Source: a virus
Length of the DNA: 64,000 nt
Strand: one strand, 5' to 3'
Virus record (IMG/VR): IMGVR_UViG_3300034139_000007
Coordinates: 1 to 64,000 of that record
The position numbers and the translations under genes are program-made. Under the pieces are notes generated by a model. It ran no database searches, had not been told where the DNA came from, and worked only from the letters and a program-made list of their open reading frames with translations. Position 1 is the first letter of the stretch; each line of letters opens with the position of its first letter. Shown piece by piece: positions 8,504 through 49,604 of the stretch.

Positions 8504-9047
8504 AGTTGTGCATCTCCACGGCAAGTTCGCCGCCTATCACGACGGCCCTATCGAGATCATCGCTTCCACCATCTGGGAGGTGATCGAGGCTGTGTCGCTC
8601 CAGGTCCGGGGCTTCGCTCCGGGGCTGGACGGTCATCAGCGCGTCCAGGTGGCGGGCTTCTCGACCTTCGAGGACCTGAAGCGTCGGGACACCCAGACCG
8701 TCGACATTCACATCTTCCCCGCACTGGCTTTCGGCAAGGAGGGTGGCCTGATCCAGACCATCATCGGCACCGTGCTGGTCGTGGCCTCCTTCCTGCTGCC
8801 CGCTGGTCCCTGGACACCCATGCTGATGAGCACCGGTATCACGATGATCATCGGGGGCGTCATGCAGATGCTGTCGCCGGTGCCGCAGCTTAACTCCGGC
8901 AACGAGAGTGAGCAGCGATCCAAGTACCTGCCCAGTAGCCAGAACACGGTGGCCATCGGCACGCCGATCCCGCTGCTCTATGGCCGATACCGCGTGGGCG
9001 GCCACATCCTGTCCCTGAACATCGACGCTACGGACACGGGGATCTGA
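8496..9047 (+). CDS. Tail assembly protein (lambda gpI-like)
   Basis: VHLHG N-terminus, IHIFP, hydrophobic hairpin, NTVAIGTPIPLLYG..VGG. Confidence 0.85.
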   Translation: MRRVVHLHGKFAAYHDGPIEIIASTIWEVIEAVSLQVRGFAPGLDGHQRVQVAGFSTFEDLKRRDTQTVDIHIFPALAFGKEGGLIQTIIGTVLVVASFLLPAGPWTPMLMSTGITMIIGGVMQMLSPVPQLNSGNESEQRSKYLPSSQNTVAIGTPIPLLYGRYRVGGHILSLNIDATDTGI

Positions 9048-12000
9048 TGCTCAAGTTCGCAAAGGGCGGTGGCTCCAAGTCGGCCACCCGCACCCCCGAT
9101 ACGCTCACCAGCACCGACACCGTCGAGGTCCTGCTCGGGATCTCGGAAGGCCCCATCAAGGGCCTGGCCGATGGTGCCAAGTCCTTCCGTGCGGATGACA
9201 CCCCGTTCGAGAACGCCAGTGGTGAAGCCAACTTCCAGAACTTCGAACTGGACGTCTACCCCGGCAGTGAGCTGGGCCACGTCATCACGCTCGAACTGGG
9301 GGGCTTCTCCAGCCCGCTGAACATCGGCGTCACGCTCGCCAAGAACATCCCCGTCGTGCGCTCTGGCTCGGTGGCCGGCATCAACGCAATCGACTTCCGC
9401 GTGGTGGTCGGTCAGCTGCTCAAGTCCACCGACAAGGGGACGTTCACGAACACCCTGTCGCTGAAGTTCGAGATCAAGAAGACGACGGACGCAGCCTGGC
9501 AACCCGCCTGGCTCTCGTCCCCCGGCAACGTCCCTGACGTCGGCACCCCCGGCGGGGGTGGCTCCGGCGGCGGCGGTGGCACGGGTGGCGGTGGCACGGG
9601 TGGTGTCGGCGGTGGCGGTGGTGGCGTCGTCGTCGCCGAGTTCCGCTCGGACCCCATCGACAACGGAGATCACGAGAGCTGGCGCTCGTTCGGTCGGGCC
9701 AATGACATCCTGACCTTCGAGGGTGACATCCAGGCCGAGGCTCTGGAGGCCCCGCCCACCGCGCCGCCCGCGAACCCCGATCTGCCCGCGGTGGCCGTCG
9801 CCAATGACGACGTCTACCACTGGAACTCGGATGACGGGACCTGGACGCCCGACCCGGCACCCGTCAGCGGCAACTTCCGTGTTTTGAACGACGGACGTCG
9901 GCTCTATGGGGGCACGACCGCCCCGACCGGCGCTCGCCCCGGCGACCTGTGGCAGATCCTGATCATCATCCGCGTCTGGAACGGCGTCGCCTGGGTCAAG
10001 CCCAGCGAGTATCAGGCCCGTAATCCACCAACCGCCGTGAACGGCATCTGGACCATCGACGAGAAGGTGTCCTCGCCGACGCCGAAGGACCTGCGCGTCT
10101 TCCTGCCGGACGCCGGTCCCGACGACATGTGGGAGTACCGGGTCACGAAGCTGTCGGACGACAGCGGCACCGAGAACTTTTCCGAGGTCAGCTGGGAGAG
10201 TGTCCAGGAAATCAACCGCAACCCCATGGCCTTCGAGGGCGTGGCCATGGCCCGCGTCATCGGTCGTGCCTCGGATCAGTTCACCTCGCTGCCCCAGTGG
10301 AACGGCGACTGGCTGGGCCGGATCGTCAAGGTTCCGACCAACTACGATCCCGCCACGCGCGTCTACACCGGGGTCTGGGACGGCACCTACAAGATCGCGT
10401 GGACCGACAACAACGCCTGGATCTTCCAGGACTTCGTCGAGAACACCCGCTACGGCCTGTCTTCGGTCTTCCCCCACGTCGTCAACAAGTGGAAGATCTA
10501 CGAGTGGGCTCAGCACTGCGACGTCATGGTGCTGCGCCCCGACGGCTCCCTGCGCCCGCGCTGGACCTATAACGACTACGTCCAGGAGCCGCGCGACGCC
10601 AAGGAGATGGCCCAGTACATCGCGGGTACTGCTGGCGCTCGCTATGTCGACGACGGCAACGGCGTGGTCGAGGTCATCATCGACAAGGACGACCCGGCCA
10701 TCGCCCTGTTCACGATTGAGAACGTGGGCGAGGAGGGCTTCAGCTACAGCTATACCGACCGTCTGACCCGCGCCAACGAGATCACTGTCGAGTTCGTCAG
10801 CCCGAACCTCAACTGGCAGAACGACAAGCGGATCGTCCGCAACGACGCTGACATCGCCATCTTTGGCCGCATTCCCGAGAACTTCGTCGCCGTCGGCTGT
10901 ATCGACACCGACGAGGCCCTGGCTCGCGCACGCCGTCGCCTGATCGGTGGCCTGACCGAGAAGGAGATGGTCAGCTTCCCGACCAACCGGAAGGGCAAGT
11001 TCCTCGCCGAGTGGAACGTGATCCTGGTCGGCGACCCCGACATGGGTCGAGGCATGACGGGCCGCATCCGGGCCGTGACTGGTGCGCGGTCGGTCTCCCT
11101 GCGCGACCCGGTCGCCTTCGAGCCGAGCGTCGAGTACTTCGCCTCGTTCGACATCGTGAACCCGGACTATCCCGAGACTTCGTCGGAGCCGTTCCGTATC
11201 GAGCGTCGGCGCATCACCAACGCCCCTGGCAACGACCAGCTGGCGCTGACCTTCGACGCCGACCTGCCGGACCTGCCCGAGTATGCAGCCTTCATCATCG
11301 AGGCTCCTGCCGTCCTGGGCTTCCCCAAGCCCTACCGGATCACCAAGATCCAGGACGACAGCGGCACCGGTGACAACATCATCATCAACGCACTGGAGCT
11401 GAACCGGAACAAGTGGGCGTACATCGACACTGGTGAAGACCAGGGCGAGATCACCTACTCCACTTTCTCCGTTGGCGAGGTCTCGCCACCCCAGGACCCG
11501 CGCCTGGAAGTGGTGGTGCGTCAGAAGGGTGTCAGCAGCGTCCGCATCCTGCAGCTGTCCTGGGAGCGGTCCCTGTCGCAGTGGGTCCGTCGCTACAAGG
11601 TCTATCACGCCATCGACGGGGTGCCGGCCAACGTCTTCGAACCGACTGGCCTCAACATTGAGGTCGACGGCACGGTCGGCGTTCACACCTTCACGATCAT
11701 CGCCGTGGACATCCGTGGCCGCGAGAGCCGCCCGCTCTCGCTCGTCCTGAACGTGACCGGCGAGAGCCGCCCGGTCTTCCCGGTCGAGAACCTGCACCTG
11801 GTCGGCGGCCTGACGGCCACGACCTTCGACGATATGAGCCCGAAGGTCGCTTGGGACGCCATCGCGCCCAACCCGAACTTCTCCCACTACACCGTCACCG
11901 TCCTGGACGGCGTTACGAGCGAGCTGCTGCGCTTCACCAACGTGGGTCAGGCCCTGGAGTGGCGCTATGACATCGTGGACCACATCGCCGATGCCGGAGG

Positions 12001-15000
12001 CGTCCCGCGCCGCTCGCTGACGTTCATGCTGGCCGCCGTCGATCAGGACACCACCACCTCGGCTCCGACGCTGCTGACGGTCACGAACCCCGCCCCGGCG
12101 ATCCCCGCGATCACCGTCGAGGAGAGCATCGGTGGCGTCAACATCACCCTGGCTCCGGTCGCCGACCGCGACGTGGCCGGTGCGGTTATCCAGTATGGCC
12201 CCGCGGGTGATCCCTTCGCCGAGACGAAGAAGGGCAACCAGAGCGACTTCTTCGTCCCGCTGCCGGACTATGAGCCGCGCTTCGTGCGCGCCGCCTACTA
12301 CGACGTCTGGAGCGAGACCGGTCTGAACTGGTCGGCGACTTACGAGGTCTCGCGAAACCAGATCACCGGACCCGACATCGACAGCCCCGCACCGTCGACC
12401 CCTATTGGCCTGGCCGTCAGCACCCCGGCCCCGACGTTCGATACCGTGACCGGCCAGGCCGTGACCAAGGTGGTCTTCACCTGGACGGCCAACACCGAGA
12501 TCGACATCTACGGCTACGAGCTGGAGTTCACCGAAGCTGGTGGCACCGCGCAGGTGATCCCGTACCCGACGAACCGGGCCGAGATCATTATCAAGGCCAA
12601 CACCGGCTTCAGTGGTCGCATCCGGTCCGTGAACCGCCTCGGCGGCAAGTCCGGCTATTCCACGCCCGTGTCGGGCACCTCGGCCAAGGACCTGGTCGCG
12701 CCGAACCCACCGACGGGTGTGACGGCCACGGGTTTGTTCGGCTCCTGGGGCCTGAGCTGGATCAATGCCACCGCCATCGACCTGAAGTCCGTCGAGGTCT
12801 GGGAGCACACCGCCAACGTCTTCGGCTCGGCGACCAAGATCGGCACTGTGGACGTGAGCCCAGGCGTGGTCGGCACCTACGTCCGCTCCGGCCTGGCCCC
12901 CAACACCCTGCGCTACATCTGGCTGGTGTCGGTCGACAGCTCTGGCAACCGGTCCGTTCAGACCACCGCCGTGTCCGCGACGACCTCGCGGCTGGCTACG
13001 GCTGACTTCGGTCCGGGCATCGCCCCCATCGAATACGCCGACTACGGTGCGCCCTCTCCGGCTACGGCCAATGCTCCGAGCCTGCCCACCACCGGCAACT
13101 TTGAAGGCCGGATGGCGGCCAACACCAACGCGGCTGATCGCAAGCTCTATCGCTACGCTGGTGGCGCATGGACCCGGGCAGTGGCCGGTACCGACCTGGC
13201 TCCGGGTTCGCTGGGCTATGCCGCCTTCAGCGACGACCTGCGCCCCCCGCAGGTCGTTACCTCGCTTCCCTCGACGGGCAACTACCTGGGCCGTCAGGTT
13301 CTGCTCACCACGGACAAGAAGCTCTATCGCTGGACCTCGGCGACCACGACGGGCACCGCCGACTGGTCCAAGGCCACCGACGGTGCGGACATCACCGCTG
13401 GCTCCATCACGGGCGACCGCATCCTCGCGGGCACCATCACGTCGGCGCTGATTGCTGCCGACGCGATCACCGCGTCCAAGGTGCGGATCGGTGACACGTC
13501 CAACATGTACCCGGACCCGCTGCTGATCGACCCGGCAGCTTTGTTCGGTTCATTCGGAGGGTTCACCCAGACCGGCGCGGCTATATCGTCCGAAAACTAC
13601 GCCCTGGTCCTGGCCAACGCCGCCGACCGCTCGACATACACCGAGACCTTCTCGGTCGAGGCCGGCAAGCCATATTTCCTGAGCTTCTTGATCGGACTGG
13701 GTGCGGGGACCGCGCCCGTGGGGGGCATGCAGGTCCTCCTCTCCTGGTTCTCGGTCGGCGACACCGGTGTTGAAACCTTCATCACCAACACCGCGCTGGG
13801 CACGGTTAATGGGGCGGGCAACTTCCAGACGGTCTCTGGACAGGTCGTCGCCCCTGCCAACGCTCGGCGGGTTCAGATCGTCTTCTATCGCTATGGCGGC
13901 GGGACCTCCATCGGTTATATCGGCTCGCCCATCATGCGCCGGGCGGCTAATGGCGAGCTGATCGTCGATGGGTCGATCACCGCCCTGAAGATCGCTGCCG
14001 GATCGATCACTGGTGACCGCATCCAGGCGGGCACGATCACCGCAGCTGCTCTGGCCGCGGGCACGATCACCGCGCTTCAGATCCAGGCCGGGTCGATCAC
14101 GGGCGACCGCCTGACTGCGGCCACGATCACCGCCCTACAGATCGCGGCCAACTCGATCACGACCTCGCGGCTCCAGGTCATCAGCCCGAGCCTGTGGCCC
14201 GACACCCAGTTCAATGAGGACGACAGCTTCCAGATCCTCGGAGGGTGGGCGTACAACAGGAACCCTGCAGCCGCGATCTGGACGTTCATGGGCGTGCGGA
14301 GCGGCATCGTTCTGAGTGGGGGTGTCCGGCCTGCCTATACCGTTGCTACGTCTCGCCACCTGTACAACAGTCTCTCGGCTGGCAAGGAGCACCGCGCTCG
14401 GGCGAAGATCGCGAACTCAACGACGACGACCGAGATCATCGTTCGCTTCGATTTTTACGATGCTGCCGACGTTTTCTTGTCCAGCATCGCGGTCGCTGCT
14501 CCCCCTAATGGCGGCGTTCCGACCCAGTACGAGGGCGTTGGCACGGTACCCACCAACACCTCCTGGTATCGGATGGTCGTTTTCAATCCGAATGCGACCG
14601 ATGCCCCCGGCCAGGCTTGGGTCAGCGACGTCTATCTGGAAGAGCGGGCGACAGGCTCTCTGATCGTCGATGGATCGATCACCGCTACCAAGATCCAGGC
14701 CGGGTCGATCACGGGTGACCGCATTCAGGCGGGTACCCTGACGGCTGTCCAGATCGCGGCCAGCTCGATCACGGCCAGCCGTCTGGCCTTGATCGACACG
14801 ACCAACATGGTCGCGGACAGCACGTTCGTGGACCCGTCGTCCTGGACCCTGAACGGGTCTCCGGCGTGGACCATCGTTGCCGATAGCGTGGCCGCCGCTG
14901 CGATGAGCGCCCAACGGCAGATCCGCTCGGGTGCTCCATCGGGCGTGCCCCATGCTGCCCAATATGATCAGGCCTTCTCCACGGCTCTGATCCCGGTCGA

Positions 15001-15649
15001 ACCGGGCAAGCCTCTCCGCTTCTCCACGTCGTGGCTGCACACCGCTGGCTTCACCGGCATCATGCGGTTCTACATCTACGAGTACAACACCGGGGCGGCG
15101 TACCTGCGTGGTTCGAACGCTGGGACTAGTGCTGACCGACGGGCTACTGCGGCCCCCAGTCAGGAGAACGGCGTCGTCCAGGCGGTCATCACGCCTCTGG
15201 CCGCCACGGCCTATGTCCGTTGGGGTGTCGAGCTGCAACGCTCGCCGAGCCTGAACAACGCGGGCTATGCCTTCGCTGCCAACCCGCGCATCAGCCGGGC
15301 AGTCAACGCTGAGCTGATCGTCGATGGCACCATCACCGCCACCCATATCGCAGCGGGCACGATCACTGGCGACCGACTAGTCGCGGGCACGATCACGGCC
15401 ACGCAGCTGGCCGTCGGCTCGGTCACGGCGGTGAACATCAATGTCGCCAACCTGGCCGCGATCAACTCGAACCTGGGTGCGATCACGGCGGGCTCGATCA
15501 ACATCGGCTCCGGCAAGTTCGTCGTGGCCACCGACGGCTCGGTCTCGATCAAGAGTGCCACGACTGGTCAGCGTACCGAGATCGATCAGTTCGGTGGGCG
15601 GGTCTATGACGGCGCGGGCGTCCTGCGGGTCCGCTGGGGCATCTGGTAA
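9047..15649 (+). CDS. Central tail fibre / host specificity protein (lambda gpJ-like)
   Basis: 2200 aa; ISEGPIKGL, KVPTNYDP..YTGVWDGTYK.AWTDN; FN3-like domains; repetitive C-terminus. Confidence 0.92.
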   Translation: MLKFAKGGGSKSATRTPDTLTSTDTVEVLLGISEGPIKGLADGAKSFRADDTPFENASGEANFQNFELDVYPGSELGHVITLELGGFSSPLNIGVTLAKNIPVVRSGSVAGINAIDFRVVVGQLLKSTDKGTFTNTLSLKFEIKKTTDAAWQPAWLSSPGNVPDVGTPGGGGSGGGGGTGGGGTGGVGGGGGGVVVAEFRSDPIDNGDHESWRSFGRANDILTFEGDIQAEALEAPPTAPPANPDLPAVAVANDDVYHWNSDDGTWTPDPAPVSGNFRVLNDGRRLYGGTTAPTGARPGDLWQILIIIRVWNGVAWVKPSEYQARNPPTAVNGIWTIDEKVSSPTPKDLRVFLPDAGPDDMWEYRVTKLSDDSGTENFSEVSWESVQEINRNPMAFEGVAMARVIGRASDQFTSLPQWNGDWLGRIVKVPTNYDPATRVYTGVWDGTYKIAWTDNNAWIFQDFVENTRYGLSSVFPHVVNKWKIYEWAQHCDVMVLRPDGSLRPRWTYNDYVQEPRDAKEMAQYIAGTAGARYVDDGNGVVEVIIDKDDPAIALFTIENVGEEGFSYSYTDRLTRANEITVEFVSPNLNWQNDKRIVRNDADIAIFGRIPENFVAVGCIDTDEALARARRRLIGGLTEKEMVSFPTNRKGKFLAEWNVILVGDPDMGRGMTGRIRAVTGARSVSLRDPVAFEPSVEYFASFDIVNPDYPETSSEPFRIERRRITNAPGNDQLALTFDADLPDLPEYAAFIIEAPAVLGFPKPYRITKIQDDSGTGDNIIINALELNRNKWAYIDTGEDQGEITYSTFSVGEVSPPQDPRLEVVVRQKGVSSVRILQLSWERSLSQWVRRYKVYHAIDGVPANVFEPTGLNIEVDGTVGVHTFTIIAVDIRGRESRPLSLVLNVTGESRPVFPVENLHLVGGLTATTFDDMSPKVAWDAIAPNPNFSHYTVTVLDGVTSELLRFTNVGQALEWRYDIVDHIADAGGVPRRSLTFMLAAVDQDTTTSAPTLLTVTNPAPAIPAITVEESIGGVNITLAPVADRDVAGAVIQYGPAGDPFAETKKGNQSDFFVPLPDYEPRFVRAAYYDVWSETGLNWSATYEVSRNQITGPDIDSPAPSTPIGLAVSTPAPTFDTVTGQAVTKVVFTWTANTEIDIYGYELEFTEAGGTAQVIPYPTNRAEIIIKANTGFSGRIRSVNRLGGKSGYSTPVSGTSAKDLVAPNPPTGVTATGLFGSWGLSWINATAIDLKSVEVWEHTANVFGSATKIGTVDVSPGVVGTYVRSGLAPNTLRYIWLVSVDSSGNRSVQTTAVSATTSRLATADFGPGIAPIEYADYGAPSPATANAPSLPTTGNFEGRMAANTNAADRKLYRYAGGAWTRAVAGTDLAPGSLGYAAFSDDLRPPQVVTSLPSTGNYLGRQVLLTTDKKLYRWTSATTTGTADWSKATDGADITAGSITGDRILAGTITSALIAADAITASKVRIGDTSNMYPDPLLIDPAALFGSFGGFTQTGAAISSENYALVLANAADRSTYTETFSVEAGKPYFLSFLIGLGAGTAPVGGMQVLLSWFSVGDTGVETFITNTALGTVNGAGNFQTVSGQVVAPANARRVQIVFYRYGGGTSIGYIGSPIMRRAANGELIVDGSITALKIAAGSITGDRIQAGTITAAALAAGTITALQIQAGSITGDRLTAATITALQIAANSITTSRLQVISPSLWPDTQFNEDDSFQILGGWAYNRNPAAAIWTFMGVRSGIVLSGGVRPAYTVATSRHLYNSLSAGKEHRARAKIANSTTTTEIIVRFDFYDAADVFLSSIAVAAPPNGGVPTQYEGVGTVPTNTSWYRMVVFNPNATDAPGQAWVSDVYLEERATGSLIVDGSITATKIQAGSITGDRIQAGTLTAVQIAASSITASRLALIDTTNMVADSTFVDPSSWTLNGSPAWTIVADSVAAAAMSAQRQIRSGAPSGVPHAAQYDQAFSTALIPVEPGKPLRFSTSWLHTAGFTGIMRFYIYEYNTGAAYLRGSNAGTSADRRATAAPSQENGVVQAVITPLAATAYVRWGVELQRSPSLNNAGYAFAANPRISRAVNAELIVDGTITATHIAAGTITGDRLVAGTITATQLAVGSVTAVNINVANLAAINSNLGAITAGSINIGSGKFVVATDGSVSIKSATTGQRTEIDQFGGRVYDGAGVLRVRWGIW
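13370..15460 (+). repeat. Four blocks of 10-aa (30-nt) G-[ST]-I-T-x-x-x-I-x-A repeats flanking three unrelated 150-170-aa modules in J
   Basis: CTGATCGTCGATGG at 13958, 14660, 15314; AGATCCAGGCCGGGTCGATCACGGG[C/T]GACCGC at about 14079 and 14691. Confidence 0.85.
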
Positions 15650-34610: not shown

Positions 34611-34899
34611 CTGGCATCCCCGTCGCAAGAAACGCACCCGGCTTCAGGCTGATGACCTGGGCGGTGGGCTGGGGCACGACACGGACGATGGTCCACGCCT
34701 TGTCCCAGTGCATCCCGGCCTCCTCGGTGGTCTCCAGGAAGGCCTTGGGGTACTTGCCCGGTTCGAGGAACTCGACCCGCATCTCTGCGGGCTCGTTCTT
34801 CTCTCCGTCCCAGCGCCACAGGATGCCGTAGCAGAAGTCCTGGCCCCTCTTCGCAGCGTCGGCCTTGATGCCCTCGATATGGTCAGCGATGGTGGTCAT
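34597..34899 (-). CDS. Hypothetical protein
   Basis: GAGG RBS, ATGA overlap with pol stop. Confidence 0.65.
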   Translation of the reverse strand: MTTIADHIEGIKADAAKRGQDFCYGILWRWDGEKNEPAEMRVEFLEPGKYPKAFLETTEEAGMHWDKAWTIVRVVPQPTAQVISLKPGAFLATGMPDVEF

Positions 34900-37655
34900 G
34901 CGGCCTGCCTCTGGTGCATCAGGAAGTCGACGACCTGACGGGTCTGGTCGTCATTCAGACGTCCGCCCCAGACGCTCTCGGGCAGGAAGTCCAGCTTGGG
35001 TGCTTCGAACAGCTCGATCTGGCCGATCTGACCAGCCAGAGGGTTGTCAGGGTTCCAGGGTTCGAACGTCAGGCCGACCGCCGGGGTGGCGTCCAGCTTG
35101 AGGGTCGGGAAGATGTCGTTGTGGGACATCATGACCTGGCGGGCCAGGGTGATGAACTCGGCGACCAGGTCCTTGTGGACCGACCAGACCTTCTCATCGT
35201 GCACCGGGATCTTGAAGTTAGCCTCCCGCTTCGTCCAGCCCATCTCCTTGATGATGGCCTTCAGCCGCAGGATCGACCGCTTGATGACGAAGGCGTTCGT
35301 GCCCTGCACCATGGCGTTCACAGCCTGGTTCTTCGCCCGCTTGTTGATGCGACGGGCGATCTCGTGGACGATGGGGCGCAGCTCGACGACGTCGGGCCAC
35401 TTGGCCTTGAAGACCTGCATCCACTCTTCCGTGGCCTCGTAGCGGAACCGGCGGTGGCCGTCCGGCAGCTCGACATAGCCGTAGATCTCGGCGTGCTGGA
35501 TGGTGTCCATGCGCCACTGCTCCGCACCCCAGAAGCGGTTCCGATAGAACTCGGTCGCCTCCCCGGTGCGCTGCAGACCCCAGCCCATGCGCTGCCCGAC
35601 AGTGGTCAGGAAGCCCGAGTACCAGTAGTTGAAGTTCGCGCCCTTGCCGATCTCGGTCCGCCAGTACTTGGCGGCCTTGGCACCGGTCATGCTCTCGCCC
35701 TTCAGGTTGGTGAACATCCGGTCCCGCTCGTAGGGCTTGCAGCCGTACTCCTTCATGAAGTCGTCGGGGTTCTGGTAGTTCTTCAGGGTCTTGAAGATCT
35801 CCTCCGTCATCCATGGAAGTTCGGCCCGGAAGATGTCCGCCGCCGCACCCAGGTGCATATCCTGGTGGGGCAGCTGACCGAAGGCCCGGTGGAACTCCTC
35901 GTCCTTGGACAGCTCGCCGATGATGACCAGCTCGAAGGCCGACCAATCGAGCGAGACCAGGATGTGGTCGTCATAGTCCGGCAGGAAGAAGCCCCGGACG
36001 TAGGTGCTCTCGCCACGCTTGGCCAGCTGCATCAGGTTCGGGGTGGAGCCAGCCAGACGGCGGGTGTTCAGCAGGCAGTTGACGGTCGGGTACATCCGAT
36101 CCGTCTCCGGGTCGGTCAGCATCGTGTAAGGCGTCAGGTACAGCTTCATGCGCTGCTCGACGCCGGCCATGGCCGTCATGATCTCGATGACCTTGAGCTT
36201 GGCCTCGGCGTTGTCGACCTGGGACTGCTTGATCCAGTCCTGGATCTTGCCTCGGGCCTCGCCGTCCGACTGGATCGCGCCCTTGTCGAACATCATCTTG
36301 GCGCGCATCAGGTCGTACAGCAGGACCCGCACCGGCATGTAGTGGGTGATCGACAGCTCCGGCTTGGCCTTGCCCTTCAGCTCGAAGCCACGGGCCTCCA
36401 GGTGCCAGGCGTTGCCGACCGGCGAGGAGACCTGCATGCACTGCGTCAGGTCGTCGTCGCTGTCGGGCATGTTGGCCCAATCGGACCACTTTTTGCGGTA
36501 CTTGTGGTAGCCGCAGGCGGCGTCCGGCTTCTCGGGATTGAAGTACCAGTCCTGCCGCTTGGCCAGCTCGCGCTCCGGGCCATCGGCAGAGGGCAGTAGG
36601 GCACGGATGGCGGGCTTCAGGTCACGCAGCAGCTTGGCGAACTCGATGCGCTCCAGCGCGCGGCGCTCGTCGATGGCGGGCTTGTTGACCCGCATGCCGT
36701 CGGTCCAGATCTCCGAGAAGACGTGGACCATAGGGTTCTCTTGCTCGAAGAAAGTCCCCAGCGCGTTCGGGCTGTTGCGGGCCAGCTCCTGCATCAGCAC
36801 ATGGAACAGGGGGATCACCCAGTAGGCGTCCTCCGCACCGTAGTCCGACACCTCGTCGCCGGACAGCATGCCCATGTGGGCGTTACCATCCATGGTCTCC
36901 TCGAAGGTCGACATGTCGTAGCCGAAGAACTTCTTCACCAGCTTCTTCAGGCCGTGGCCGTAGGCCATGTCATAGACGTAGCCGTTGTAGGAGCCGTCGC
37001 TGTCGGCGGTCTTGGACGTGATCTTGCCGATGATTTCGTCGACCTTGCGGCTGAACCGACGGTCCTGCTCGTCCTCGTCGTCGGGGACCAGGTCCTGGGG
37101 CGTCGTCTCCAGCGCGGCCATCATCAGCGGGTGGACGTGGCGCTGCAGCTCGCCCAGCGGGGCCTTCCAGAACTCGTTCTTGTCGTAGTTGTCGTCACCG
37201 AAGGCCGACACCGACATCTGCATGGTGCAGACGATGTTGTTCAGAGGGTAGTCGAAGCAGGAGGCGAAAGCCGTCAGCTCGTAGGTGGCGTTGTGAGCGA
37301 CCCACAGCACGCCCTCGGGCTTGGCGTCGAGGATCGGCTGGACGTCGGCCCAGGTCAGGCGGTTGGCGACGTCGGAGTGGCCCAGGTTGAAGTACCAGGC
37401 TACGTCGTGGCCCTCGGGGTAGAGCGAGAAGCCGGTCATCACGGTGCGACGCATGTCGAACACCAGCTTCTTGTTCTTAGCCTTGTGGCGGGTCTCCTCG
37501 TTGACCTTCATGAAGGCGTTGAGGCCGTCGTGCCGGGCGTCGTCCTGCGTCTCGCAGTCGATGCCGAGCAGGGTGGTGCAGGCCTGGATGGCGGCCAGCA
37601 CGCGGGGCAACTCGGTCTGGAAGTTGCGACGGTCGATCAGGGTGGTGCGGATCAC
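34896..37655 (-). CDS. Family A DNA polymerase with 3'-5' exonuclease domain
   Basis: DCET, HNATYE, YGAED; TRRLAGSTPNLMQ; DWSAFEL; R..GKGANF; NAMVQG; VHDE. Confidence 0.95.
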   Translation of the reverse strand: MIRTTLIDRRNFQTELPRVLAAIQACTTLLGIDCETQDDARHDGLNAFMKVNEETRHKAKNKKLVFDMRRTVMTGFSLYPEGHDVAWYFNLGHSDVANRLTWADVQPILDAKPEGVLWVAHNATYELTAFASCFDYPLNNIVCTMQMSVSAFGDDNYDKNEFWKAPLGELQRHVHPLMMAALETTPQDLVPDDEDEQDRRFSRKVDEIIGKITSKTADSDGSYNGYVYDMAYGHGLKKLVKKFFGYDMSTFEETMDGNAHMGMLSGDEVSDYGAEDAYWVIPLFHVLMQELARNSPNALGTFFEQENPMVHVFSEIWTDGMRVNKPAIDERRALERIEFAKLLRDLKPAIRALLPSADGPERELAKRQDWYFNPEKPDAACGYHKYRKKWSDWANMPDSDDDLTQCMQVSSPVGNAWHLEARGFELKGKAKPELSITHYMPVRVLLYDLMRAKMMFDKGAIQSDGEARGKIQDWIKQSQVDNAEAKLKVIEIMTAMAGVEQRMKLYLTPYTMLTDPETDRMYPTVNCLLNTRRLAGSTPNLMQLAKRGESTYVRGFFLPDYDDHILVSLDWSAFELVIIGELSKDEEFHRAFGQLPHQDMHLGAAADIFRAELPWMTEEIFKTLKNYQNPDDFMKEYGCKPYERDRMFTNLKGESMTGAKAAKYWRTEIGKGANFNYWYSGFLTTVGQRMGWGLQRTGEATEFYRNRFWGAEQWRMDTIQHAEIYGYVELPDGHRRFRYEATEEWMQVFKAKWPDVVELRPIVHEIARRINKRAKNQAVNAMVQGTNAFVIKRSILRLKAIIKEMGWTKREANFKIPVHDEKVWSVHKDLVAEFITLARQVMMSHNDIFPTLKLDATPAVGLTFEPWNPDNPLAGQIGQIELFEAPKLDFLPESVWGGRLNDDQTRQVVDFLMHQRQAA

Positions 37656-42456: not shown

Positions 42457-42644
42457 GCGGTGGCGACCTTGATCTCGCGGTTCATCAGCCGACCCAGCAT
42501 CTGGCGGCGGATCTGGCACGGGCTGTTGGCGATGGTGGGACCGACGGTGAACATCAGGAACTGCTCCTTCTGCTCTTCGGTTTTCAGGGCGGCGAGATGC
42601 TGGCTGAACTTCCAGTACTCTTTGGTGGCTTCGGCTAGGGTCAC
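42453..42644 (-). CDS. Hypothetical protein
   Basis: AAGGAG RBS, GTGA overlap. Confidence 0.65.
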   Translation of the reverse strand: MTLAEATKEYWKFSQHLAALKTEEQKEQFLMFTVGPTIANSPCQIRRQMLGRLMNREIKVATA

Positions 42645-43087
42645 GTCTTCTCCTTGGGCAGGGCTGGTGTGATGAGGGTGTCGAAGTCCACGCCGAGGAC
42701 GCTGGACAGCGTATACAACTGTCCGAGCGTAAAGTCGTGGGCTCCGACCTCCATGTTGCGGACGACCACGCGGCTGACGTTAATCTGTAGTCCCATCTTG
42801 GTCGGGGTCAGGTCATGCTCGGCGGCGTATCTGGCGATCTGGATGCCGATCCAGGAATGTCGCTTCGACAGGGCCTTTTTGTTGACCATGATCCGGGGGT
42901 CATCAGCCTTGGCCACCCGCTTGCGCGGGCCATTGGCCATCCGGTCAGCGTTCACCAGTTTGTGGATCGTGCTGACCGAACGGCCATAGGTCTTGGCTAG
43001 GTCGGGGACACTCTGGCCCTCCCAATAGCTTTCCACGATCTTGGTGTTCAGATCGCGAATGTCATCACGGCTGGGGGGCATGGTCAC
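42641..43087 (-). CDS. Transcriptional regulator with N-terminal HTH and C-terminal XRE-type HTH
   Basis: GQSVPDLAKTYGRSVSTIHKLV; LT..MG..INVSR..VRNMEVG..FTLGQL..LS..LGV. Confidence 0.8.
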   Translation of the reverse strand: MTMPPSRDDIRDLNTKIVESYWEGQSVPDLAKTYGRSVSTIHKLVNADRMANGPRKRVAKADDPRIMVNKKALSKRHSWIGIQIARYAAEHDLTPTKMGLQINVSRVVVRNMEVGAHDFTLGQLYTLSSVLGVDFDTLITPALPKEKT

Positions 43088-43127: not shown

Positions 43128-43784
43128 TCAATGATAGTGGTAGTTTACATCTGCCGTCGTCCAGCAGGTGTCGCACGAACCGCACTTATTGCCCTGCTGC
43201 AAGGCCGGGCAATGGCTGAATGCCTCGCTGTCGACACCGACGGTCGAGACCGGCAGGTCGAACGGACGGGACTTGGGCGCGACGCCCAGCTTGGGGCTGG
43301 AGGTGCGGACCACCAGGTTGGACGGGAAGGTGCCGCCCTTGGCCAGGAAGGCGCGGACGACGGGCAGCTCGCGGGTCGGCAACCAGTGTGACAGCTGCGG
43401 GGTGCGGACGGCGATCTCGACGATCTTCTGCAGCATCTCGACCGACTGCAGGTCACCGGCGTCGAACCAGCGGAAGCGGTTCTCGACGACACCCGGGGAA
43501 CGCTCGCGCCGCTGGTGGGTGTACAGGTGGTTCAGGACGGTGACGAAGTTGTCGACGAAGGCGGGGTCATCGACGGCGGCCAGGCGGCGCTGCTGGGCCT
43601 CGACCACGTTGGAGAACCGGTAGTTGCCTTTGAGCGCATAGCAGCCGGAGCAGGTGGTGCCCTCGACCGCGGCCAGCTTGGACCCGGTGATGCAGGTGGT
43701 GGCCGATATGGACCAGGACCACCAGGGCATTTTCGACGGCTTGCCGAGGCCGCCGATGGCTTTGAGTGCTTCTAGGTATTGCAT
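43128..43784 (-). CDS. GP88-like Cys-rich (radical-SAM-like) protein
   Basis: SKMP, C..CSGCYALKG, FRWFDAGD, HWLPTRE, CPA..CGSCDTCW. Confidence 0.75.
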   Translation of the reverse strand: MQYLEALKAIGGLGKPSKMPWWSWSISATTCITGSKLAAVEGTTCSGCYALKGNYRFSNVVEAQQRRLAAVDDPAFVDNFVTVLNHLYTHQRRERSPGVVENRFRWFDAGDLQSVEMLQKIVEIAVRTPQLSHWLPTRELPVVRAFLAKGGTFPSNLVVRTSSPKLGVAPKSRPFDLPVSTVGVDSEAFSHCPALQQGNKCGSCDTCWTTADVNYHYH

Positions 43785-44005
43785 TTCATTTCCTTGACCA
43801 TGCGGCGAATGTTCTGCCGCACCCAGTCTTCCTGGTGCTGGAGTTTCTTCTTGTTCGACGTGTCCGAGAGCGTCGTCTGACGGCGCTGATCACCGTAGCG
43901 GACCACCATCAGGATGTGTTTGCTACCGTGCTGGAACTCGACGGAGGCCCCGTGTTTCGGGGCCTCCGCTTCAGCTGCAGCACGAACCTTTCGGTCCCGC
44001 GCCAT
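43772..44005 (-). CDS. Hypothetical protein, possible HicA-like fold
   Basis: GSKH strand pattern then T.S.T.S and a helix. Confidence 0.45.
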   Translation of the reverse strand: MARDRKVRAAAEAEAPKHGASVEFQHGSKHILMVVRYGDQRRQTTLSDTSNKKKLQHQEDWVRQNIRRMVKEMKCNT

Positions 44006-44006
44006 G

Positions 44007-44942
44007 TTAGACCCGAGAGATGCCGTTGCCGGGATCGACGTGCGGCTTGGGCTCGATGCCCCGACTGTCCGTGATCTTGCCGGTGATGCGGTAGAGGGTC
44101 GTCGCATCAGTCGCCAGGGTCTGGCCCTTGTACTTGCCGTCGTACTCGTCACCGGCCACGAAGGGCTGGAGCACGAGCCGCCCGGTGAAGCGCAGGTCGC
44201 CCTCGTCGTCGGCATAGCGCAGCCGGTCGTGGTCGGGGCCATAGGGGACGATCTCGACGTCGCCCAGCTCTTCGGCATGATCATCCGAGTTCCCCTCCAG
44301 GACCTTGCGCTCCGCAACCGTGTCGCGGTTGATGGCCAGGTCGGCGTCGAACTTGTCCGGGAAGCGACGGAACAGCTTGTCGATGTTCTGCTGGTCGTTC
44401 TCGCGGATGGTCTGGCCCAGGGCGATCAGGGCGTTGGCGCGGTACCAGGCCACGTCGCCCATTTCTTCCTGCATGTTGACCTCGTCGAGGGTCGCGCCGT
44501 CGAACAGGACGGGGATCAGGGCTTCCAGCAGCTCGCCGGCCTCGGTCACGATGCCCAGGATCATGTGCGTCAGCAGCAGGATCTTGGTGTTCGTCACCTC
44601 CAGCGGCGGGTGGACGTCGCCGAACACGGTCGGCTTGCCGTAGGCCAGGGCCTTCTTGAAGCTGTCGAGCGCGACGGTGGCGTCACGGGCTTCTTCGAGG
44701 CGGATGCGGAAGTGCTCGGCGGGCACCAGGTCGGTGCGGTGCTGGTGGCCAGCCGGGCAGGTGCGGCTAGCGAGGGTCTGGTAGTCGAAGTCGGTCATCA
44801 GGTTGTCCATCATGTGAGCGACGACGCGGAGTTCCAGGTCCGCGAAGTCCAGGTGAAGCAGGCTAGGCTGCGGGTCGGGGCGGTGTGGTCGAAGGCCCTG
44901 CCACTCGGGGCTGGATCGGTAGGCCCTGCCGGTCGGGGTCAT
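44007..44942 (-). CDS. MazG-like NTP pyrophosphohydrolase with N-terminal PolA-motif peptide
   Basis: LGIVTEAGELL..EEMGDVAWY..NIDKL..RFPDKF; N-terminus TPTGR..SPEWQ..DFADLELRVVAH. Confidence 0.8.
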   Translation of the reverse strand: MTPTGRAYRSSPEWQGLRPHRPDPQPSLLHLDFADLELRVVAHMMDNLMTDFDYQTLASRTCPAGHQHRTDLVPAEHFRIRLEEARDATVALDSFKKALAYGKPTVFGDVHPPLEVTNTKILLLTHMILGIVTEAGELLEALIPVLFDGATLDEVNMQEEMGDVAWYRANALIALGQTIRENDQQNIDKLFRRFPDKFDADLAINRDTVAERKVLEGNSDDHAEELGDVEIVPYGPDHDRLRYADDEGDLRFTGRLVLQPFVAGDEYDGKYKGQTLATDATTLYRITGKITDSRGIEPKPHVDPGNGISRV

Positions 44943-45219
44943 CGGGGAACTCCAGCACGGTGAGAGGGATGCAGTAGTAAGTCTCGTCGAGGAAGCCTCG
45001 AAAATCCTTACGGTAGAGCTTGAGGTCGAAGCGGACCTCGCGGTTCCAGATCACCACGTCGTGGATCTCGGCGGTACGGCCAGCGTGCTTGCCGCTCTTG
45101 ACCTTGACCTTGGTACCGATGATCGCTTTGCCGAACAGCTTGAGCTGGTCGTCGAGTTCCTTTCGGCGAAACTCCAGACTGGCGACTTTGAGGCGGATGA
45201 ACGTCTCGATCTGGTTCAT
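44863..45219 (-). CDS. Hypothetical protein with KOW-like motif
   Basis: GTKVKVKSGKHAGRTAEI. Confidence 0.6.
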   Translation of the reverse strand: MNQIETFIRLKVASLEFRRKELDDQLKLFGKAIIGTKVKVKSGKHAGRTAEIHDVVIWNREVRFDLKLYRKDFRGFLDETYYCIPLTVLEFPDDPDRQGLPIQPRVAGPSTTPPRPAA

Positions 45220-46220: not shown

Positions 46221-46234
46221 TTTAACGGTTAAAG
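46221..46234 (-). promoter_or_regulatory. Motif A copy 1 (CTTTAACCGTTAAA), contains rIIB stop codon
   Basis: One of eight copies at gene junctions. Confidence 0.75.
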
Positions 46235-47416
46235 TCCCGCAGCGGTCTCGGCACGCTGCAGTCGATCGATCTGCGGCGGGGCACTGTCGGTCAGGCCCAG
46301 CTCCGCTTCGATCTCATCGAGACGATCCGACAGGGTCTTGTCGTCCCAGTCGCTGTCGTCGATGTTGAGCGTGGCGCGGAGACGCTCGACGCGGTCGGTG
46401 AAGCTGACCGGTGCGTCGTCACCGACAACCGGACCCAGGTCACCGCTCAGGTCGCGCATGGCCACCAGAGCCTCGACGCGAGAAGCATAGGTGTCCACGA
46501 CGGTGCCCGCGGGGTTCACAAGGTCCCATTGATCGCCGTCACGGTCGGCCCAGAGCACACGCCAGCCAGCGTCCCAGGCGGCCAGGGCCGGACCGCAATC
46601 CTCACCCTCGGGCAAGGCAAACTTGATGCCCTCACGCTGGTACAGGGCCACGCGGTCGTAGCTGAACACCAGCTGGTCCTCGCCCTCGAAGAAGACGCCC
46701 TCGCGGGCCTCCTGCATCGAGATCTCGAACAGCACCTCGTGCTTCTCGGTGCGGCCCTTGGAGCCGCCGCCGTCCTGCGGGAAAGACACGACGTCAGACG
46801 GGTCCTCGGCCATGATCAGGCAGCGATAGTCCGACATGCTCTTCAGGTACTTGTGATTGCAGAAGTGCAGGCCACGCGAGCAGGTGTTGTTGTAGTTGAG
46901 GTCGCACTCGTCGCGCGGCATCCGAACGATCCGACCCGGTGAGTTGTCCATGGACCTGGTGTGGGCGTCCAGGTACTGCATGTTGACGTACCGATAGGCC
47001 AGGAAGCGACCGTCCGGCAGGATCGGCAGCTCGGCCCGCTCGACCCACTGAAACAGCATGTCGATGGCGTCGCGGGTCGGGTTGCGCATGACGCGGTCCA
47101 GGAACAGCGCATACGGCTCCGGGTCGCGGCCACGGTTCACCATCTGGAGGATGCGGTCGACGAGGTAGTTGTCGACACGTCGGCCCTGGAAGGTGACGCG
47201 ACCGGCGAAGACGGTCACGTCGCCATAGTTGCCCAGGGCTTTGGTGAGGCGGTCCGAGGCGTTGACGATGCCGTCGACCTGGTCGTAGTCACCATTGGCG
47301 ATGGCCGTCTTCAGCTCCTCGTATCGAGGGTTGTCCGACGGAACCGTGAAGGGCCTGCCGGCCACGAACACGGTCACGCTGTCAGCGGACACGATTGAGA
47401 TCACAGGGTTAGTCAT
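46229..47416 (-). CDS. rIIB: RIIB-like protein
   Basis: LPILPDGRFLAYR, DNSPGRIVRMPR, TCSRGLHFC, PSDVVS.P. Confidence 0.88.
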   Translation of the reverse strand: MTNPVISIVSADSVTVFVAGRPFTVPSDNPRYEELKTAIANGDYDQVDGIVNASDRLTKALGNYGDVTVFAGRVTFQGRRVDNYLVDRILQMVNRGRDPEPYALFLDRVMRNPTRDAIDMLFQWVERAELPILPDGRFLAYRYVNMQYLDAHTRSMDNSPGRIVRMPRDECDLNYNNTCSRGLHFCNHKYLKSMSDYRCLIMAEDPSDVVSFPQDGGGSKGRTEKHEVLFEISMQEAREGVFFEGEDQLVFSYDRVALYQREGIKFALPEGEDCGPALAAWDAGWRVLWADRDGDQWDLVNPAGTVVDTYASRVEALVAMRDLSGDLGPVVGDDAPVSFTDRVERLRATLNIDDSDWDDKTLSDRLDEIEAELGLTDSAPPQIDRLQRAETAAGL

Positions 47417-49604
47417 TCAGCTTGGTCCTTCTGAATGCGGCGAGGGCGGGGACGTCCACGTCGCTGTAGTTGAAGATGTTTGTCTCGGTCCGTTCCCAGA
47501 TCGCGACGGCGAGGCGTAGTAGTGGAGATCGATTGTAGACTTTCTCGACCTCCTTGGCCACCGACACCCGCAGCTTCTTGGGTGTCGGCATGTCGAGCCC
47601 GGCACGACGGGCATAATCCCGGGCGTGATCGATCTCACGCTGGAGCGCGCTGGCATCCTCGGGAGCCTTGAGGGCTTCGAGGCGGGCCGTGATCGTCGGG
47701 AACAGGTCCGGGTGCCGGGTGGTCAGGCGGCGCACGGTCTTGGTGAGCTTGTCCTGATCGACCTGGGCCGCGGCGGCCTGACGGGCCAGCTCGGCCAGCA
47801 CATCCGGGTTACGGATGGTCAGATCGAACTTGGCCTTGAGCCAGACGTCCAGACGGATGAAGTCCGCCTGATTACCGTCGCGCTTGACCTGGGCCTGGGC
47901 CTTCTTGGACAGACCCAGCACCAGTTGGCCACCGTCGGTACGCCAGCTAGAGTTGATGACCTTGTTGTCGAAGCCGACCGTGTCGTCGATGTCGTGACCC
48001 GTAAGGGGGATGTAGACACCGGCGGTGGCCAGCTCGTCGGTCTGGTTCCAGTCCGAACGGCACCCGTGGTAGCGGTAGCCGCCATACTGGGTGCCAGGAG
48101 ACAGGGTCAGGACGCGCAGCTCGGTCTTCTTGCCGCTGGCCAGCTTGGTCTTGGGCTCTGGCAGGGGCAGCTCCGACAACAACATGATGTTCTGGTCAGA
48201 GTAGCGCCAGTCGGCGAAGTGGGCACGCATGGCCTCGATGGAAGGCCAGTTGGGCACATCGGCACCCTTGTGGTCGAGACGATGGTCGAACAGATAGACC
48301 GCCAGCTTTCTGACGCCCAGATCCTCGGCCAGTTGGCGAGCACGCGAGGTGACCCGGCGCTTGCTGTCGGACACGTCCTTCATGTCGTCAAAGACGAAGA
48401 ACCGGTTGTCGCGGAAGGCGTCGACCGGGAAGGTGTCCTTGACGTAGCGACTGAAGGTGACCTCGGTCTTGTCACTCTTCCAGGACTTGGGCTCGACGTT
48501 CAGGACCTGCGGGCGACCGTAGGGCAGGGCGATCTCGTCGCGGATGCCCGGGAAGCCAGCGTGCTGGACGATGTCGCGCATCACGATGCCGGGCTTGGCG
48601 TCGGCCTTGATCTCGGGCCACTTCTTGGTGATCATCGACCAGGTGTTGTTGTCCTTCAGCTTCTGGATGAACTCCAGCTGCTCGAAGGGGTTCATGGTCT
48701 TGACCAGCTCGAACTGCTGCTCGGCATAGTCGTCGCAGATCTGACGATACCGCTCGCGCAGCCGGGTCAGGGTCAGGGTGTCATACGACAGACCCTCACG
48801 GCTCGGCAGGAGGTCCAGCTCACCGATGCCGAACACCATGATGATGGTGCCGGGCAGCTTGGCGTCGCCCTCCTGGAGCACGATGCCCCAGTCCAGCGGG
48901 TAGGCGACCGGACCCATCAGGACGTAGGGCTTGGCCGGAGCCTCGGTGCGGACCCAGTAGTTGGACTTCTGATCGGTGTACTCGATCACCGGCACGTCAA
49001 TGCCGTGGACCTCGTAGCTGCCCAGCGGCAAGTGCTGCAGCAGGTCAGCGGCAGTGCTCTCGAAGACGCCCCAGTCGTTGGTCTTGATCGGGACCTGGAC
49101 CTGGATGCCGTCCGGCTCGTCGGTGGGCTGCTCATCGATGCGCGACATCTGAGGGATGCCGTCGCCGCCACGGTAGGCGGCGTAGCTGCGCTTGATGCCG
49201 GCCTGCACGGACGCCACGGTGAAGGCGTCGGCGTAGGCGAAGGGCGACTTGCAGCCCAGACCGAAGCCGCCGATGGCGTCGTCGCCCTGATCCTTGGTCG
49301 ATGCACCGAACGAGGTGTACATCAGCATCACGTCGTCGTCGCTCATGCCGGGGCCGTAGTCGCGGATCGTCAGCATCGGCTCGATGTGGTTGGGCAGGCT
49401 GATCAGGATCGGACGGGTCTGGCCGTTCATGCCGTGGGCGTCCAGTGCGTTGCACGAGATCTCACGGATGACGGCCCGGGGTTTGTCCGAGTAGAGCTTA
49501 TCGGCCAGGATGCTGAACATCTTGGCGTTGCCCTGGATGGTGAAGGCGGCAGTCGGCAGCTCGTCGCTGACCGAGACGTCTCTCTTGAAGGCATCGGAAC
49601 GCAT
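47409..49604 (-). CDS. rIIA: RIIA-like protein (GHKL ATPase N-terminus)
   Basis: LYSDKPRAVIREISCNALDAH, RDYGPGMS, STK, GGFGLGCKSPFAY. Confidence 0.9.
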   Translation of the reverse strand: MRSDAFKRDVSVSDELPTAAFTIQGNAKMFSILADKLYSDKPRAVIREISCNALDAHGMNGQTRPILISLPNHIEPMLTIRDYGPGMSDDDVMLMYTSFGASTKDQGDDAIGGFGLGCKSPFAYADAFTVASVQAGIKRSYAAYRGGDGIPQMSRIDEQPTDEPDGIQVQVPIKTNDWGVFESTAADLLQHLPLGSYEVHGIDVPVIEYTDQKSNYWVRTEAPAKPYVLMGPVAYPLDWGIVLQEGDAKLPGTIIMVFGIGELDLLPSREGLSYDTLTLTRLRERYRQICDDYAEQQFELVKTMNPFEQLEFIQKLKDNNTWSMITKKWPEIKADAKPGIVMRDIVQHAGFPGIRDEIALPYGRPQVLNVEPKSWKSDKTEVTFSRYVKDTFPVDAFRDNRFFVFDDMKDVSDSKRRVTSRARQLAEDLGVRKLAVYLFDHRLDHKGADVPNWPSIEAMRAHFADWRYSDQNIMLLSELPLPEPKTKLASGKKTELRVLTLSPGTQYGGYRYHGCRSDWNQTDELATAGVYIPLTGHDIDDTVGFDNKVINSSWRTDGGQLVLGLSKKAQAQVKRDGNQADFIRLDVWLKAKFDLTIRNPDVLAELARQAAAAQVDQDKLTKTVRRLTTRHPDLFPTITARLEALKAPEDASALQREIDHARDYARRAGLDMPTPKKLRVSVAKEVEKVYNRSPLLRLAVAIWERTETNIFNYSDVDVPALAAFRRTKLND

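Follow-up and report, generated by a model that had tools for sequence, protein, structure and literature searches.

A Conserved Remnant of the DNA Polymerase I Active Site at the N-Terminus of a Phage MazG-Like Pyrophosphatase

Introduction

MazG-like enzymes of phages (phrog_229, PF03819) have the fold of DCTPP1, iMazG and E. coli MazG, and family A DNA polymerases (PF00476), which comprise at least 550 residues, are characterized by the signatures 'T-x-TGR-L-S-S-x-x-P-N-L-Q' and 'D-Y-S-Q-I-E-L-R-x-x-A-H', the second of which contains the catalytic aspartate of motif A. Elements of both protein families meet in the product of a long-form mazG gene that we describe here. It is located on a stretch of 64 kb (hereafter the window) from the 80.8-kb IMG/VR virus record IMGVR_UViG_3300034139_000007 with a GC content of about 64%. 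The first 48 of its 311 residues form an N-terminal extension, which is a conserved, non-catalytic remnant of a DNA polymerase I active site. A protein of the same architecture is encoded by Caulobacter phage Seuss (gp080, YP_009785590.1, 328 amino acids, annotated as 'MazG-like pyrophosphatase') and shows the same synteny downstream of rIIA/rIIB. The window phage is probably a Seuss-like soil phage related to it. Our literature searches retrieved neither a report of a polymerase-MazG fusion nor one of the polymerase-like part of Seuss gp080.

Results

The Extension Resembles Family A DNA Polymerases

The extension starts with TPTGR, followed by PEWQ, an Arg/Pro-rich linker and finally LDFADLELRVVAHM. 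This order matches that of family A polymerases, in which the 'T-x-TGR ... P-x-x-Q' motif comes first and motif A thereafter, and both elements are in frame with MazG. An initial annotation of the window had described the first 44 residues as a miniature polymerase I active-site peptide, and we found the open reading frame (ORF) and these residues at 44811-44942 exactly as quoted there. Motif A contains its catalytic Asp, but the term active-site peptide is overstated for the extension: motif B (O-helix, R..K...Y.G), motif C (HDE), the fingers and the remaining palm are absent, and from residue 49 on the protein consists of the MazG core and a beta-rich domain. As motifs B and C are missing, the extension cannot polymerise. 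Matches to PF00476 in the genome that lie outside profile positions 115-170 are confined to the separate polymerase gene.

In a comparison with Pfam, DNA_pol_A was the sole family that matched the 44-residue and the 48-residue window peptide (E = 0.11 and 0.049, 12-13 bits), with DFADLELR (residues 32-39) aligned to profile positions 149-171. The same family was the only one found with the 30-residue extension of the related locus L003, so that the peptides of window and L003 together span E-values of 0.03-0.11 at profile positions 149 to about 172. The 58-residue N-terminus of Seuss gp080 matched with E = 6.9e-5 and 22.4 bits, and its residues 2-49 cover profile positions 115-170 with both motifs in order; the window and the Seuss peptide are both below the PF00476 gathering threshold of 34.3 bits. 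In a six-frame search of the Seuss genome, PF00476 matched, apart from the real polymerase, only the gp080 N-terminus (E = 2.8e-5). Using tblastn of the Seuss N-terminus against 2.3 Gb of phage DNA, the annotated non-self matches were mostly DNA polymerase genes and extended over residues 4-49; the best ones came from the Thermus phages phiYS40, TMA and Tt72 (E about 8e-3), and bacterial polA and Arthrobacter phage Atuin were also found. The window protein and Seuss gp080 align in one piece over window residues 4-286 with 35.6% identity. The polymerase match of the 44-mer is weak if the peptide is considered alone, but it becomes significant via the Seuss homologue.

A search with the back-translated motif A consensus D-[FY]-x-x-[LIVM]-E-L-R-[VI]-x-A-H gave a single match in the 64-kb window, located at the motif A look-alike (Table 1), and none in 100 shuffled versions (0/100). 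In the ESM Atlas, the three best-ranked named clusters carry PF00476 in 12-52% of their members, which serves as a lead only at a score of 0.79, below the 0.9 mark. The 48-mer (phmmer) and a profile of the extension retrieved no PDB sequence at E <= 10, and a word-indexed search of window residues 1-50 against the longer proteins of an index of 5.8 billion proteins did not identify a polymerase parent. A local peptide hidden Markov model run against 8,533 ORFs of all loci returned, beyond the query-derived window, L003 and L004 sequences, only noise from the Arg/Pro linker and one PolA motif A at 4 bits. Judged by sequence, the extension is homologous to the part of family A polymerases that starts with the TGR motif and ends shortly after motif A; about 10 residues have apparently been deleted between the two motifs.

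The window phage also encodes a complete family A DNA polymerase of its own, which is listed in Table 1 for comparison only and is not part of the element. At the equivalent sites this enzyme reads NTRRLAGSTPNLMQ and LDWSAFELVIIGE, i.e., TRR and DWSAFELVIIGE. The corresponding sites in the Seuss and L003 phage polymerases are like those of the window, except for TLR instead of TRR in the L003 phage. TGR, ELR and AH in the extension are Pol I-type features which are missing from the phage's own polymerase. The Seuss extension shares 18 of 51 positions with the Pol I segments of Salmonella or Staphylococcus compared to 13 of 51 with its own polymerase, and for the window extension these values are 12-13 of 47 versus 10 of 47. 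Hence, the proposal that the peptide is closer to Pol I than to the resident enzyme, and no simple local duplication, was borne out by a small margin. The sequence comparison indicates that the extension is slightly closer to Pol I-type polymerases and was neither copied from the phage's own polymerase nor duplicated locally in recent times. As no polymerase in the 5.8-billion-protein index is close enough for a recent donor, the fragment seems to be old and not derived from the resident polymerase.

Translation From ATG 44942 Is Favored

The ribosome-binding site GGAG in front of ATG 44942 and the in-frame fusion to the MazG domain, both claimed by the initial annotation, could be confirmed, and the second start at 44798 mentioned there exists as well. 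This second start is used by the public gene call P0001. No Shine-Dalgarno match precedes the internal ATG codons at 44813 and 44798, nor the core Met in L003 or Seuss, and between 44942 and motif A there is no further in-frame ATG, GTG or TTG.

The last 26 codons and the stop codon of an upstream ORF overlap the extension in another frame, a feature missing from the initial annotation. The 80 shared nucleotides (44863-44942) correspond to the first 27 codons of the extension. Thus, this segment is dual-coded and specifies the Pro/Arg-rich tail of the upstream ORF as well as the TGR half of the extension. The GC content at third codon positions (GC3) of the upstream ORF body is 0.84 in its own frame, whereas in the overlap it is 0.70 in this frame versus 0.81 in the MazG frame. 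For 44799-44862 the MazG frame has a GC3 of 0.86 and a GC content at second positions (GC2) of 0.14, and the periodicity shifts to the MazG frame at 44942. In one relative's contig the upstream stop codon is changed from TAG to TAA, and the same change results in S27N in the MazG frame.

Related loci add to this picture. In L003/L004, which encode P0004-type proteins, the extension begins at the GTG of a GTGA stop/start overlap, 6 nucleotides behind GGAGGT, and Seuss gp080 has been annotated with the extension included. For ATG 44942 and GGAG no difference is listed in X3 and X7, two contigs of related phages that come from other metagenomes. No RNA data set is among the sequencing runs listed for this sequence. 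The protein collection does not contain the long form. Common gene callers penalise or forbid overlaps on the same strand that are as long as 80 nucleotides. Since gene callers disallow such an overlap, we consider the public call at 44798 as weak evidence for the start site. We also considered that the MazG frame might be entered by a programmed frameshift out of the upstream ORF, but dropped this idea, as in L003 the gene upstream is a different one and the overlap is a simple one of 4 nucleotides. Based on these sequence features, translation from ATG 44942 is favored over 44798, and the start used would then be the distal one. It is possible that a short isoform is produced from the conserved core Met, or that this Met is kept simply by ancestry. 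The annotation lesson is that the public gene call for the window, and probably those for several relatives, trims the extension, likely via the overlap with the upstream gene.

Conservation Is Concentrated in the Motif-A Half

Homologues of the long-form gene product are P0002-P0011, P0031, P0173 and Seuss gp080. The motif-A segment is present in eight distinct proteins, namely the window protein, P0003, P0004, P0005, P0007, P0173, P0031 and Seuss gp080. All eight contain the group pattern DF[AS][DE][LI]EL[RK] in frame and no more than about 20 residues ahead of the MazG core. D32, F33, A34, E37, L38 and R39 are the same in all of six proteins with the extension; in Seuss, two of these residues are replaced by S and K. 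The carriers are spread over three well-supported subclades of the MazG tree; therefore, the fusion probably predates the divergence of the carrier phages.

Comparing window and L003, 13 of the 21 residues of the motif-A half (residues 28-48) are identical, and the proportions of synonymous (pS) and non-synonymous (pN) differences are 0.62 and 0.28. With 0.415 and 0.291 for the MazG core, the motif-A half is at least equally constrained. Most of the altered codons in the LDFADLELRV.AH stretch differ at the third position only, a pattern that rules out constraint on the nucleotide sequence itself and points to selection acting on the peptide encoded in this frame. The near relatives in contigs X3, X4 and X7, which are short, of low depth and thus indicative only, show 7 non-synonymous versus 3 synonymous differences in codons 1-27, including G5R within TGR, and three differences in codons 28-79, all of them synonymous; X4 has none in motif A.

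The TGR half occurs in Seuss, P0003 and the window protein. Over their first 50 residues, the latter two share 56% identity (E = 2e-6), and both open with MTPTGR. In other carriers the TGR half is lost: P0004/5 and P0007 begin after it, and P0173 and P0031 do not contain the TGR motif. Taken together, the substitution patterns indicate that the motif-A half is kept by purifying selection and that the TGR half appears to be eroding.

The Extension Occurs in One Small Clade

All carriers of the extension belong to a single small clade of phages that resemble Seuss. A search with residues 1-50 among proteins of 171-545 residues gave P0003 as the only match, and scans of viral, metagenome and genome sequences retrieved DNA of a single extension-carrying relative (L003/L004). 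In IMG/VR, a degenerate DNA pattern of the motif matched only the L003/L004 contigs and one unrelated family, and no MazG carrying the extension was detected in 596 Gb of prokaryote genomes. More than 100 other MazG loci of phages and metagenomes start at or near the core or bear unrelated N-terminal extensions, none of which is PolA-like. Therefore, of the recurrence raised in the initial annotation, the presence of the peptide in the MazG proteins of related phages could be established; a second fusion partner was not found in these searches.

Two further candidates were rejected. The MazG of an Acinetobacter Lokivirus matched from residue 30, but the motif is absent. PaMx74 gp15 (phrog_18209), from the unrelated family matched by the DNA pattern, contains DFADVELRVLAQ within a variable linker and PTGRF upstream of it and has no PolA match in Pfam, so we regard this similarity as chance; in the phrog_18209 members of Xp12, AXL_1, PaMx28, AAT-1 and Donnerlittchen the same segment is a variable linker without the motif. 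The protein family phrog_18209 (PaMx74 gp15 at L174:5950-6837; also at L164-L171) has no assigned function and includes a Myb/SANT-like segment. In Pamexvirus and Bosavirus phages, among them Xp12, its gene sits in a small opposite-strand cassette within the block of head genes.

Enzyme Core and Neighboring Genes

The core is predicted from its sequence to be a MazG-like (d)NTP (deoxy/ribonucleoside triphosphate) pyrophosphohydrolase. phrog_229 'MazG-like pyrophosphatase' matches the window protein with E = 8e-43, and Pfam MazG (PF03819) with E = 2.9e-4 and 21.5 bits, which is marginally below the cut-off of 22 bits; the homologues P0007 and P0008 hold a precomputed PF03819 assignment. An alignment of 12 homologues revealed E134, E137, E159, E160 and D163 as invariant acidic residues, and the EXXE...EXXD metal-binding motifs are present. 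In the AlphaFold2 model the core is helical with a predicted local distance difference test (pLDDT) score of 82-95. A Foldseek search with the whole model, including its disordered parts, gave DCTPP1, iMazG, E. coli MazG and mouse dCTPase as the matches with the best probability (0.96-0.99), all with E > 0.04. In P0003 and P0004 an extra domain (about 100 residues, alignment columns about 230-330) separates the core from the C-terminal domain; its Pfam matches, to a YscD/CdsD Bon-like domain and to DUF6957, are weak.

The genes around mazG are summarized in Table 1. Upstream of it, the 731- and 395-residue proteins take the places that in Seuss are occupied by the annotated lysis-inhibitor genes RIIA and RIIB. 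The order MazG, GP88 and helix-turn-helix (HTH) gene downstream is identical in L003 and similar in Seuss. An antisense ORF of 349 residues (43914-44963, plus strand) covers the entire mazG gene; it shows no sign of a real gene and resembles the spurious open frames that are typical of high-GC DNA. Two very long ORFs of 1886 residues (794-6454) and 2200 residues (9047-15649) are found on the plus strand of the window.

Table 1. Positions of the mazG gene, its parts and other features in the window.
Feature	Position	Strand	Remarks
Long-form mazG gene	44007..44942	-	311 residues plus stop; PolA-derived extension, MazG-like core and C-terminal beta-rich domain; from ORF list, phrog_229 match and homologues
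GGAG Shine-Dalgarno box	44950..44953	-	7 nucleotides upstream of ATG 44942
TGR half of the extension	44862..44942	-	Residues 1-27: TPTGR, PEWQ, Arg/Pro-rich linker; all but the last base overlaps the upstream ORF
Motif A look-alike DFADLELRVVAH	44814..44849	-	Residues 32-43; conserved core of the extension
Internal ATG (Met49)	44796..44798	-	Start of public gene call P0001 (263 residues); Met at this position in every extension-bearing homologue
Predicted MazG-like all-alpha NTP pyrophosphohydrolase core	44295..44798	-	Residues 49-216; E134-x-x-E137, E160-x-x-D163
C-terminal beta-rich domain	44010..44294	-	Residues 217-311; common to the closest homologues; AlphaFold2 strands 223-292 with moderate confidence
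Upstream ORF	44863..45219	-	118 residues; weak Pfam KOW match (E = 1.5e-3); public collection call P0172
395-residue protein	46229-47416	-	Follows the 731-residue protein; at the position of Seuss RIIB
731-residue protein	47409-49604	-	GHKL ATPase match (HATPase_c_3); at the position of Seuss RIIA
Cys-rich protein	43128-43784	-	Pfam GP88 (PF17338), E = 2.4e-26; directly downstream of MazG
Cro/C1-type HTH gene (probable)	42641-43087	-	Next after the GP88 gene
Family A DNA polymerase of the phage	34896..37655	-	Pfam DNA_pol_A (E = 7e-32) and 3'-5' exonuclease domain; complete

Discussion

It is reasonably probable, in our view, that the extension represents a domesticated remnant of a Pol I-type polymerase that was fused to mazG long ago and of which the motif-A segment has since acquired a new role. 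In this scenario, the region from the 'TGR' primer-terminus motif through motif A would have become the 5' end of mazG in an ancestor of the Seuss-like phages, and translation from ATG 44942 would yield the long form as the main product. The only segment kept in all carriers is DF[AS][DE][LI]EL[RK][VI]x[AG]H, about 14 residues which are predicted to be helical. We assume that this segment could act as an N-terminal appendage of MazG, an amphipathic helix ahead of the first core helix, which may modulate assembly or activity of the enzyme or dock a partner.

Several points weigh against this interpretation. By itself the window peptide has no significant similarity to DNA_pol_A, and the case leans on its homology to Seuss gp080 and on collinearity, while the advantage of Pol I over the phage's own polymerase amounts to a few residues only. 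The estimate of selection is based on one DNA pair, window and L003, together with contigs of low depth. The Met at the first core residue is kept in all carriers, and the close homologues P0002, P0006 and P0008, as well as P0030 and P0034, have been called without an extension, which reflects either true loss or gene calling. Two AlphaFold2 runs placed a helix over residues 33-46/48 leading into the first core helix, but residues 1-50 have a pLDDT below 40. Prediction of complexes between the peptide and two MazG cores gave no verdict and counts neither way.

The relic of an old recombination event, as already proposed in the initial annotation, could also be neutral; in this case the extension would owe its translation solely to its position between the core and a usable start codon, and it would decay slowly without a function. 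The loss of the TGR half in most lineages and its excess of non-synonymous differences, including G5R, are in line with such a decay, as are P0030 and P0034, which seem to lack any extension, and the fact that neither a structure nor a partner is predicted. A recombination relic indeed fits the origin of the extension. However, D, F, E, L and R/K are retained across cores that are only 35-57% identical and at near-saturated synonymous divergence, a distance at which a neutral 14-mer would be unrecognisable. The shortest carriers, P0007 and L003, are trimmed to exactly the motif-A segment and yet keep it. The conservation of the motif-A half thus argues for more than a decaying relic, and we regard a neutral extension as rather unlikely.

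It has further been suggested that the peptide mimics a polymerase. In its broader form, the motif-A segment would be an active mimic that couples MazG to the replication machinery or to the sensing of dNTPs or primer termini, or that neutralises a host factor recognising family A polymerases, which seems distinctly unlikely to us. Very unlikely is the narrower version, in which the peptide diverts a polymerase-recognising defence sensor or inhibitor of the host, or tethers MazG to a component of the replisome. The retained residues are the most conserved ones in real polymerases, i.e., the metal-binding Asp, the steric-gate Glu and ELR..AH, and the gene is located among early and replication genes near rIIA/rIIB, which would both suit a mimic. 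Several points speak against this idea. Motif A forms a strand and a helix buried in the palm of folded polymerases and would be ill-suited as a surface epitope; the extension is more like Pol I-type enzymes than like the phage's own polymerase; and it is limited to one small phage clade.

The probability that a short acidic and hydrophobic motif arose independently of any polymerase is lower still. Such convergence would account for the 12-13 bits of the window peptide and the empty PDB sequence searches (phmmer and profile), and the unrelated PaMx74 gp15 demonstrates that DFADVELRVLAQ can occur by chance in a variable linker. This explanation is contradicted by the finding that three lineages have two separate PolA motifs in their proper order and at nearly the right distance, by the Seuss match over 56 profile positions with tblastn matches mostly to polymerase genes, and by the shuffled sequences. 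Finally, it is highly improbable that the true start in the window is ATG 44798, with the frame upstream being the remains of an extension functional only in relatives, as P0001, the missing long form in the protein collection, the required 80-nucleotide overlap and the conserved Met49 might suggest, since a Shine-Dalgarno sequence is present at 44942 and not at 44798, GC3 (0.81-0.86) and GC2 between 44942 and 44799 show the periodicity of the MazG frame, no difference is listed in X4 for the intact motif-A codons, and ATG 44942 and GGAG are unchanged in X3 and X7.

With regard to the initial annotation, a PolA match exists, the start at 44942 is favored over 44798 and the peptide recurs in related phages, so that its central observation holds. 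A domesticated remnant would represent a clean and datable case in which a few dozen active-site residues of an essential enzyme were captured by an unrelated enzyme and whittled down by selection to a core of 14 residues. Micro-exaptations of this kind are rarely documented because they are below the thresholds of domain detection. If the segment served as a mimic, a polymerase fossil of 14 residues would be a functional short motif in the conflict between phage and host, and if it were functionless it would be an evolutionary curiosity. The question is experimentally tractable, as the cultured phage Seuss, which grows on Caulobacter crescentus, carries the most polymerase-like version.

Comparison with known systems places the window protein between two enzyme families. 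The core shares the acidic motifs with phage MazG-like enzymes and is predicted to adopt a similar helical-bundle fold. In contrast to the window protein, none of the more than 100 other MazG loci examined has a PolA-like N-terminal extension. With family A polymerases the extension has the motif A Asp, the Glu, the Leu-Arg and the Ala-His in common, but its 48 residues do not include a thumb, fingers or an exonuclease domain. The N-terminus of Seuss gp080 (STGRLS...PEIQ...MDFSEIELKVIAHL) is like that of the window protein; it differs in an extension that is about 10 residues longer and nearer to the Pol I consensus, and in its C-terminal domain. Split or interrupted polymerase genes of phages with inserted cassettes offer a plausible route by which a fragment ending past motif A could come to adjoin a gene of nucleotide metabolism, and it is a matter of speculation whether the fragment arrived in this way. 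Unlike in split polymerase genes, the window phage has an intact polymerase at a distance of 7 kb, neither a homing endonuclease nor a second piece of a polymerase was seen, and the fragment is not part of a working split enzyme but is fused to MazG and conserved.

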